Shown one piece after another: positions 39,228-41,566 of a stretch of DNA of 64,000 nucleotides. The first letter of the stretch is position 1. Each line of letters starts with the position of its first letter. Under the pieces are notes generated by a model. That model saw only the letters and a list, made by a program, of their open reading frames with translations, was not told the DNA's origin and made no database searches. This DNA is from a phage, in the sequence record PZ000613.1; one strand, given 5' to 3'. The translations under genes and the position numbers were made by a program.

Positions 39228-41018
39228 ATGTCAAAGATCATTTTGGGAGACACAGGTTGTAAGGAATGTATCTCTCATGGTCGTGATAAAACCCACAACC
39301 ACATGATTCTCTTCCGTAACGAAGAGACAGGTGAGGAGTGGGGAAGTTGTAACCGTTGTGGGAATTACGAAGTGTTCGAAAAGGGCACTACACCTACTCC
39401 AAACGAGAGAAAAGAGTTATCCCCTGAAGAGTTAAGAGAAGTCTTAGATGATTGCTTAGAGCTTCCTCAGGGAGAGCTTACTCGACGTTTAATCCCCAAA
39501 GCTGTATCAGAGCGTTTTGAGTGTCGCATCGGTCTAAGCCAGACTGATGGGCAGACTCCAGACAGCTACTTCTTTCCTCGTGAACGTGATGGAAACATTG
39601 TTGGTTACGAGGTTAAGCTGCTAGATAGTAAGAAGTTTTATTATGTCGGCAGTGTGAAAGAAGCAGATTTATTTGGTATGGCACAAGCTCAACGTGGAGA
39701 CGTGTACAACAAGAAGCTATTCATTTTTGAAGACCCGCTATCTTGTATGTCTGGTTTCCATGTCCTTACAGCTTTTACAAATGCAACAAACATTAAACCA
39801 GCATGTGTTTCTTTACCGTTCGGTGCAGGTTCAATCTCTTCTGTGTTGTCTCGTAACCGAGACTTCGTAAATGGTTTTGAGGAGGTTGTGCTCTGCATGG
39901 ACAACGATGATGCAGGTGAGATAGCTTTAACAAAAGGTCGTTCTTTATTCCCTCATGTCAAGTTTGCTCGTATCCCTAAAGGAACCTTCCCATACAACGG
40001 TGTGGAGAAAGAGATTAAGGATGCGAATGATATGCTTCTGTCTGGTCGTGGTCAAGAGTTATTCAACATTCTCAAGTACTCAGCAAAGCGGGAATCTCCT
40101 GCTGGGGCTGTAACAATCTTTGATTGCCTTGATGATGCTCTGAAGAAAGCGGAGTGGGGTATCCCATATCCGTGGAAGACTCTGAATGAGATGACCTTCG
40201 GTATTCGATGGGGGGAAGTGGTAGCAATTGGTGGTGGTGTTGGTAGTGGTAAAACACTTATCGCTCACGAGCTGGTTGCTCATCTGTGCTTAGAGCATGG
40301 TTTTAATGGAGGTGGCTTCTTCTTGGAAGAGAAGGTAGGCATGTCTGTTAAGAACATTGCCGGTAAGTCAGCATCAATTCCTTTCCACCGACCTGATGTT
40401 GAATATGATGAAGAGGATTTGCGTAATGAAGCACTTCGTTATGCAGACAAATTCTTCTTGTATGACAACTTCGGACAGAACGAGTGGGAAGATATTAAAC
40501 AGTGTATCCGTTTCTGGGTAGTTGAAAACCAGTGTAAGTTCATCATCCTTGATAACATTACCGCTCTGGTATCTCATTTAACACCTTCAGAGATTAACAC
40601 TGAAATCAGTAAGATTGCTTCCGAGCTTGCTGGTATGTGTAAAGAATTAGACTTTACCGCTTTCGTGCTATCTCACCTTAATGCTCCGGCAGGTGGTGCT
40701 CCTCATGAAGAAGGTGGACAGGTACGTGAAGTACAGTTCACTGGCTCTCGTTCTCTTATGCGTTGGTGTCAGTGTATCATTGGCTTTGAGCGTGACAAGC
40801 AAGCTGACGGCTTAGCTAAGAACCTCTCAGTCATTCGATTGCTGAAAGAGCGTAACTATGGTCAGACTGGTGTCTGTTATACTAAGTATATCAGCGAAAC
40901 CGGTAGGCTTGTAGAAAGGGAAGACTTTGAAGTTGATGAAGATAATCCATTCGTTTTAACTAACGGAGAGGACGCAGCTTCTCTTCTCAACCAAGCAGAT
41001 GGAGCTTCACCGTGGTAA
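39228..41018 (+). CDS. DNA primase/helicase (T7 gp4-like bifunctional, 596 aa)
   Basis: N-terminal Cys4 zinc ribbon (CKEC ... CNRC), TOPRIM-like acidic motifs ([10 protein letters not shown]), helicase Walker [10 protein letters not shown] and Walker B IILDN. Confidence 0.85.
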
Positions 41019-41566
41019 AGAAAAAGAAAGTATTTGCATTCGATATCGAGAGTAATGCACTATACGATGACATAACTAAAGTATGGTGTATTTATATTTT
41101 CGATGTTGAAACTGGTGAAAGGTGGGGCTATCGGCCTCACCAAATTGAAGACGGGATTCGTAAACTGACAGAAGCGGATGTGCTCGTTGGTCATAACATT
41201 ATTGACTTCGACTTACCTGCTCTGAAGAAAATGTATCCCTCTTTGATTAAATACAATTTTAACGTCTTTGACACTTTATGTCTTAGTCGATATCTTAAAC
41301 CTGACCGTATTGGTGACAGTCCTGAGTATCCGAAAGGCGACCCTAGACGTGGCCCAAGAGGTCATGGCTTAAAGCAATGGGGTGAGTTCTTAGAGGAACT
41401 TAAAGGTGACTACGGTGAGCAAGAGGAAGCATGGGATGCTTTCACTGAAGATATGTTCACTTATTGTGAACAGGACGTTAACTTAACTGTTAAGGTTTAT
41501 CTTTTCTTGTGTGAACTCACGGGATTTGACCCTTACGACCCACCTTCATTATATTGGAAAATGTAA
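41012..41566 (+). CDS. DnaQ-like 3'-5' proofreading exonuclease, stand-alone (184 aa)
   Basis: Exo I FAFDIES, Exo [14 protein letters not shown], Exo [11 protein letters not shown]. Confidence 0.75.

Follow-up and report, generated by a model that had tools for sequence, protein, structure and literature searches.

The family A DNA polymerase of phage T7, gp5, is a single chain of 704 aa. It is the general view, discussed in PMC10201439, that enzymes of this family depend on an exonuclease domain in cis for both fidelity and stability. In Kuravirus phages, by contrast, there are two polypeptides. Separation of the exonuclease and polymerase genes was noted for this phage group, including the LUZ24/PaP3/tf phages, in 2012 (PMC3517423), is credited to phiEco32 (2008) in later papers, PMC3517423 included, and was described in 2023 as a feature shared by all Kuravirus-like phages as well as 7-11, Privateer, Vp_R1 and BUCT695 (PMC9965538). 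A family A polymerase split into adjacent genes has been described in T7-like cyanophages (S-SBP1) by Czernecki et al. (2023; PMC10201439), and in an AlphaFold2 prediction the S-SBP1 halves assemble into a complex that can be superposed on the single-chain enzyme.

The DNA analysed here is a stretch of 64,000 nucleotides (sequence record PZ000613.1), referred to below as the window. It is from a Kuravirus, one of the phiEco32-like/SU10-like E. coli podophages of the Gordonclarkvirinae, and its closest known systems are phiEco32, SU10 and YF01 together with the allied phages 7-11, Privateer, Vp_R1 and BUCT695. A 15-kb region is ~94% identical at the nucleotide level to roughly 100 Kuravirus phage records, SU10 among them, with identical genes in identical order; the window differs from other Kuravirus phages at the strain level only and carries an optional HNH gene. 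The exonuclease and polymerase gene pair recurs in about 100 related phage records, and is therefore not a chance arrangement. In the SU10 RefSeq record the corresponding genes are gp076 'DNA primase/helicase', gp075 'DNA polymerase exonuclease subunit' and gp051 'DNA polymerase', and in the original GenBank record of SU10 both gp075 and gp051 are named 'DNA polymerase'. The name 'DNA polymerase exonuclease subunit' exists in both RefSeq and PHROGs. Databases and papers thus already record the split in these phages, and the novelty implied by the original prediction falls away. What is new here is the exact break point, the fact that some 70 polymerases share it, the measures of selection, the series of gaps of 0, 2.3, 6.2 and 10 kb, and the exclusion of the HNH gene as the cause of the split.

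A T7 gp4-type primase-helicase is encoded on the plus strand at 39228-41018 (Pfam DnaB_C and Toprim_2; PHROG 239 'DNA primase/helicase', E 1.4e-175). Directly 3' of it, as had been predicted, is the gene of a putative stand-alone DEDDy 3'-5' exonuclease (41012-41566, plus strand, GTG start, 184 aa). The primase-helicase stop and the exonuclease start overlap by 7 nt, a GGAG is found 7 nt 5' of the GTG start, and the exonuclease is probably translationally coupled to the primase-helicase. The translation includes GHNIIDFD and YCEQD, and the Exo I (DxE), Exo II (Nx2-3[F/Y]D) and Exo III (Yx3D) motifs are all present and conserved, with D11, E13, H61, N62, D67, Y151 and D155 invariant in a 42-sequence alignment that included T7 gp5. 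The protein passes Pfam DNA_pol_A_exo1 (PF01612) at 35.2 bits (cut-off 23.6) and matches PHROG 403 and PHROG 38876, both of them named 'DNA polymerase exonuclease subunit'. The translation, the invariant residues and the PF01612 match confirm the predicted 184-aa ORF with all three exonuclease motifs. By its sequence it is of the DEDDy type found in the proofreading domain of family A polymerases, with intact motifs, and 3'-5' activity is predicted for it. Every one of its 55 database homologues stands alone as a protein of 105-212 aa, over a range of identity from 99% to 35%.

The polymerase gene is located on the same strand at a distance of 10,075 bp (51641-53485, GTG start, 614 aa) and is preceded by an AAGGAG ribosome-binding site. 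Its product is a T7-type family A polymerase domain with thumb, palm and fingers (Pfam DNA_pol_A, fold model), the Pfam match being restricted to residues 361-611. In a 78-sequence alignment D375 and E380 of motif A, R443, K447, Y451, Y455 and G456 of motif B, and H564, D565 and E566 of motif C are invariant; the third position of motif B is Tyr (Y451, in FIY), as in T7. The motif assignment is supported by alignment to T7 RDNAKTFIYGFLYG in both the PDB sequence search and BLASTP. T7 gp5 is the best solved-structure relative by sequence (T7 residues 295-704, E 4e-33, PDB sequence search). The AlphaFold2 model (pLDDT 93.0, pTM 0.83) was compared to the PDB with Foldseek, and the top 27 matches were T7 gp5 chains, with E-values down to 8e-26; the modelled right-hand fold is closest to that of T7 gp5.

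Searches of Pfam, PHROGs and PDB sequences matched no exonuclease family in the 614-aa protein; together with the alignment, this upholds its description as a polymerase that has motifs A, B and C but lacks Exo motifs. A cryptic exonuclease domain, named with the original prediction as a finding that would speak against it, was rejected by these profile and sequence searches and by the AlphaFold2 model and its Foldseek comparison. The same holds widely among relatives: among the nearest 120 listed polymerase homologues, the nearest ~114 (P0056-P0169) had no match to a Pfam exonuclease domain, the first with such a match being P0170 and P0173, although P0164, P0165 and P0169 do have an N-terminal exonuclease domain by alignment despite lacking the Pfam match. 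Listed homologues without a Pfam exonuclease domain, down to ~36% identity, are proteins of 460-620 aa or ~450-aa N-terminal fragments from intron-interrupted genes. The window's enzyme is a T7-like family A polymerase (cluster 5 of Czernecki et al. 2023) minus the same-chain exonuclease domain. It shares with the T7 system the Tyr in motif B, the exonuclease and polymerase catalytic motifs, and a position after the primase-helicase, and differs from T7 gp5 in a shorter thioredoxin-binding region and in lineage-specific insertions at ~135-240, 313-368 and 390-420.

Alignment against single-chain polymerases, which had been proposed as a means of defining the break, placed it in the linker between the exonuclease and polymerase domains. 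On the single-chain polymerase profile PHROG 17 the exonuclease occupies positions 668-826 and the polymerase positions 836-1233. Joined into one chain, the two proteins align over their full length with seven single-chain polymerases (595-618 aa; 44-47% identity), and also with T7 gp5 (31% identity). The exonuclease, aligned to T7 gp5 residues 5-196 by BLASTP, is the counterpart of the N-terminal domain of gp5, residues about 3-196; its tail matches T7 DKHYFPPEIDF (residues 186-196), and the polymerase N-terminus corresponds to gp5 residue about 206. The exonuclease ends 14 residues past its last helix and the polymerase opens directly with conserved polymerase sequence. From the correspondence of this tail and N-terminus to T7, the break lies within the interdomain linker and no part of the chain has been lost; the two genes are a complete, colinear T7-type polymerase cut at the exo/pol linker. 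The alignment contains 70 polymerases without an exonuclease domain, and every one of them starts at a common column, with 0-5 extra residues. The break is at T7 residues about 190-207 in Kuravirus, in Bruynoghevirus Ka1, in Libingvirus BUCT695 and in the independent S-SBP1-type phage WH11-B.

The S-SBP1-type cyanophages thus have a T7-type polymerase split at the same interdomain linker as the window. In T7-like phages the gene for the polymerase comes directly after that for the primase-helicase. In WH11-B the two halves overlap (exonuclease 3507-4022, polymerase 3983-5254), and the S-SBP1-type fission is recent and arose by frameshift, whereas the split seen in the window is old and taxonomically broad, with the halves 10 kb apart.

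The order of primase-helicase, exonuclease, gap and polymerase was found in all Kuravirus records, in Bruynoghevirus, in Libingvirus and in uncultured relatives, and the shared order extends upstream to a block of amidoligase, GATase, ATP-grasp and GGACT genes. In Bruynoghevirus (LUZ24, PaP3, tf), where the genes are named 'DNA polymerase part I' and 'part II', the gene order, the linker break point and the upstream amidoligase/GATase/GGACT block are all as in the window. Unlike the window, the gap there is only 2.3 kb (Ka1: exonuclease 8953-9480, polymerase 11824-13461), and the polymerase is 545 aa in place of 614 aa and is without part of the Kuravirus thumb insertion; identity to the window is ~34% for the exonuclease and ~39-42% for the polymerase. 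The gap is 6.2 kb in BUCT695 (exonuclease 13998-14489, polymerase from 20705), 9.7 kb in uncultured contig L007 (exonuclease 10001-10582, polymerase from 20250), and more than 10 kb in uncultured contig L006 (exonuclease 10001-10501), in which the polymerase is outside the examined locus. With the overlapping halves of WH11-B these form a series of 0, 2.3, 6.2 and ~10 kb. The exonuclease is accompanied by an exonuclease-less polymerase in every genome examined (SU10, Ka1, BUCT695 and L007), and seven pairs of exonuclease and polymerase homologues appear each to lie on one contig, judging from a shared longest-contig size (e.g. 81,643, 88,363 and 100,903 bp).

The split is older than Kuravirus. 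In a neighbour-joining tree the point estimate nested the clade of fused forms among the split forms; with T7 as root the split forms were monophyletic in only 54 of 100 bootstrap replicates, and the fused clade was monophyletic in 82 of 100; this tree is compatible with either one fission or several. Both halves have been maintained since the window and SU10 diverged, with dN/dS values of 0.024 (exonuclease) and 0.016 (polymerase), next to 0.013 for the primase-helicase; equally strong purifying selection acts on exonuclease and polymerase.

The two genes are separated by a block of middle genes (41567-51640), plus strand throughout, that was characterized from the ORF list, Pfam, PHROGs and the SU10 annotation. 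Directly 3' of the exonuclease is a CCA-adding-like nucleotidyltransferase, and the block also contains a dCTP deaminase, a DNA-binding protein, a thioredoxin-domain protein, ThyX, a small ligase-like ORF, PhoH, a free-standing HNH homing endonuclease (49631-50122, plus strand; Pfam HNH_3, E 3.4e-10) and small ORFs. In SU10, 23 genes are annotated between exonuclease and polymerase; the window has these and the HNH gene, about 24, in good agreement with the predicted interval of about 10 kb and some 25 genes including an HNH endonuclease. Both the exonuclease and the polymerase gene fall within the middle-gene cluster as described for phiEco32. Terminator-like hairpins were found between them, so expression of the two need not be stoichiometric. 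A promoter scan gave 33 matches against 34.8 expected from shuffling; there is no excess, and separate regulation is accordingly not claimed. The thioredoxin-domain protein (45645-45923, plus strand; PHROG 22 'thioredoxin domain', E 6.4e-13) is, by analogy to T7, a possible processivity partner of the polymerase, a hypothesis put forward for phage Privateer (PMC7881722). Outside the block, a 5'-3' exonuclease is encoded on its own gene (58623-59441, plus strand; PHROG 107 'exonuclease', E 5.2e-64), a third Pol I-type activity with a separate gene; equivalent genes are described in phage YF01 (PMC9965538).

It is probable that an old fission of a T7 gp5-type gene at the linker was followed by insertions that widened the gap, and that the exonuclease now proofreads as a separate subunit. 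An ancestral T7 gp5-type family A polymerase gene would have been cut in the linker between its 3'-5' exonuclease and polymerase domains, and the exonuclease gene would have kept the ancestral site of the 5' end, directly after the primase-helicase. Nucleotide-metabolism genes and small genes would then have gathered between the halves, to 2.3 kb in Bruynoghevirus, 6.2 kb in Libingvirus and ~10 kb in Kuravirus. Both proteins would be produced in the middle phase of infection and would re-associate non-covalently via the former intramolecular interface, the 184-aa protein excising misincorporated 3' nucleotides for the 614-aa polymerase. The homology to T7 gp5, the colinearity, the position of the break, the intact catalytic residues, the purifying selection and the gene order are observed directly in the genomes; physical association and proofreading in trans are the most likely consequence. 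A trans-acting proofreading subunit was one of two readings offered by the original prediction, and it is the one best supported, by the invariant residues, the selection and the colinearity, with the association and the activity in trans themselves inferred. By its genes, colinearity and linker break the pair fits the two-gene split exo/pol family A polymerases (PHROG 403), and its complex is predicted on these grounds.

Indirect support for association comes from the AlphaFold2 complex of S-SBP1 and from the dependence of family A polymerases on the exonuclease domain for stability (PMC10201439). The literature searched contained no direct evidence of complex formation or trans-proofreading in the Kuravirus lineage, and no biochemical demonstration, for any split family A polymerase, of proofreading in trans. 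The mode of action is probably the same as in E. coli Pol III, where a separately encoded DEDD exonuclease, epsilon (DnaQ), serves the polymerase subunit alpha; this is analogy and not membership, the polymerase here being family A and that of Pol III family C, with an unrelated alpha-epsilon interface.

A trans-acting exonuclease might also owe its place in the replisome chiefly to the primase-helicase and not to the polymerase. The primase-helicase and exonuclease genes adjoin, with start and stop codons overlapping or abutting, in Kuravirus, Ka1, BUCT695 and L007, and the polymerase gene lies anywhere from 2 kb to more than 10 kb away; both observations would fit. This adjacency is more simply a relic of the ancestral gene 4-gene 5 order, as seen in T7-like WH11-B, and in L006 three small ORFs part the helicase and exonuclease genes, so that anchoring by the primase-helicase is considered unlikely. 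Similarly improbable is a wide and stable separation that is itself functional, in which the exonuclease, co-translated with the primase-helicase, would be a replisome subunit brought in via the helicase or via the lineage-specific thumb insertion of the polymerase (residues about 135-240).

Slightly less likely again is that the exonuclease is an independent nuclease, acting in host DNA decay, recombination or RNase D/T- or TREX-like RNA processing, and that the polymerase is non-proofreading. Pfam PF01612 also includes RNase D and WRN-type nucleases, so family membership alone is compatible with such a role, as are the 10 kb and the terminator-like hairpins between the two genes and the CCA-adding-like nucleotidyltransferase gene next to the exonuclease. 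Searched against PDB sequences (phmmer, E<=1), however, the exonuclease matched T7 gp5 only (T7 residues 3-178, E 1e-11). Its AlphaFold2 model (pLDDT 92.7, pTM 0.89) gave T7 gp5 chains at Foldseek ranks 1-27 (E 1e-11 to 1e-9, query-normalised TM-score 0.62-0.74), below which TREX, diDNase and oligoribonuclease-like folds matched just at E ~1e-5. A tblastn search of phages with the exonuclease returned 1940 matches, and in a 60-row sample of these the functional annotations were DNA polymerase or polymerase exonuclease with one exception, 'ribonuclease H-like domain protein'; RNase D/T did not occur among the 60. The protein also retains the linker-proximal tail homologous to T7 residues 186-196, and it always co-occurs with an exonuclease-less polymerase in the genomes checked. 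Closer similarity to RNase D/T or oligoribonuclease, which had been named as the outcome that would count against a proofreading domain, was therefore looked for and T7 gp5 was the closest relative by both sequence and fold; RNase D/T identity was rejected.

The second reading of the original prediction, the footprint of a mobile element, stands in part: fission followed by gene insertion is supported, and the named HNH gene as its agent is not. About 10 of 99 Kuravirus records have this gene, and the rest, SU10 included, lack it cleanly. Since the relatives without it all share the same split, it is not the cause. It is located between homologues of SU10 gp056 and gp055, two small ORFs, 8 kb from the exonuclease. 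Mobile elements do strike the polymerase gene in this lineage: a group I intron (RF00028, 102 bits) interrupts it at ~residue 454, within motif B, in relative L009, which has an 88% identical polymerase, and in BUCT695 an endonuclease ORF breaks it up. That an HNH endonuclease, intron or intein caused or maintains the split in the window, with a single polypeptide restored by RNA or protein splicing, is nonetheless highly improbable, as no Rfam intron is present anywhere in the window, the alignments show no intein-sized extensions at the new termini and leave no space there for split-intein halves, and the two halves are separated by about 24 independently translated genes; reconstitution by intron or intein was rejected on these grounds.

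The exonuclease and polymerase pair could supply a modular polymerase and exonuclease for enzyme engineering. If the wide separation were functional after all, the family A replisome of these phages would have exchangeable or regulated proofreading, comparable to that of Pol III alpha and epsilon, and the phage could tune its mutation rate or give the exonuclease a second task. The distant, separate halves found across several phage genera are a natural test of proofreading in trans within family A.

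The exonuclease gene (41012-41566) is followed directly by a gene for a nucleotidyltransferase resembling CCA-adding enzymes (41568-42908), whose start is probably the ATG at 41568 rather than the mechanically listed GTG at 41511. Farther along the interval that leads to the polymerase gene (51641-53485), a 107-aa ORF (47831-48154) is named 'NAD-dependent DNA ligase' in relatives (PHROG 6466); its length is far too small for a complete ligase. A free-standing HNH endonuclease (49631-50122) is flanked by the counterparts of gp056 and gp055 of SU10 and is polymorphic for presence or absence among Kuravirus, being carried by about 10 of 99 records, with the other records cleanly lacking it. 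Two strong terminator-like hairpins, each with an 11 bp stem followed by a T-rich tail, were located at 45238-45266 and 50438-50463. Because both fall between the exonuclease and polymerase genes, these two genes may belong to separate transcription units inside the middle-gene cluster.

The processivity factor of T7 gp5 is the thioredoxin of the host. In comparison with T7 gp5, the polymerase encoded in the window keeps the thioredoxin-binding region, but in shortened form. The phage itself encodes a 92-aa thioredoxin-domain protein (45645-45923), also between the exonuclease and polymerase genes, and pairing of such a protein with the polymerase has been proposed in the paper on the allied phage Privateer (PMC7881722). 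Relative to T7 and to the relatives with fused polymerases, the window's polymerase carries three lineage-specific insertions, at residues of about 135-240, 313-368 and 390-420. One of the insertions is helical, about 100 aa in size and placed in the thumb, and its structural model is confident except for a single low-confidence stretch near residue 235.

The polymerase gene is uninterrupted in the window. Close relatives have the gene broken at motif B, around residue 454. The L009 gene, which encodes a polymerase with 88% identity, contains a group I intron that has no ORF (4354-4617; RF00028, 102 bits, E 2.6e-27), and the gene of the Libingvirus BUCT695 contains an endonuclease ORF (22158-22583 of locus L005). 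Within the first 20 codons of the window's gene, at 51668-51696, lies a perfect sigma-70 consensus consisting of TTGACA, a 17 nt spacer and TATAAT, with TG preceding the -10 element. The SU10 counterpart is identical, and in L007, a more distant uncultured contig with the same split gene order, the -35 element is gone. The consensus may have arisen incidentally from the conserved coding sequence LTEMTVADII, or it may be an internal promoter.

Elsewhere in the window, one phage-borne tRNA gene, tRNA-Arg(TCT), was found at 24420-24495. Upstream of the primase-helicase gene, a block at 29433-39008 encodes an amidoligase, a glutamine amidotransferase, an ATP-grasp (RimK-like) protein and a gamma-glutamyl cyclotransferase, with synteny across Kuravirus, Bruynoghevirus Ka1, Libingvirus BUCT695 and the L007 contig. 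A 5'-3' exonuclease (PHROG 107) is encoded at 58623-59441, some 5 kb downstream from the polymerase gene. This activity is likewise carried on a gene of its own, and therefore all three Pol I-type activities are encoded apart in this phage.
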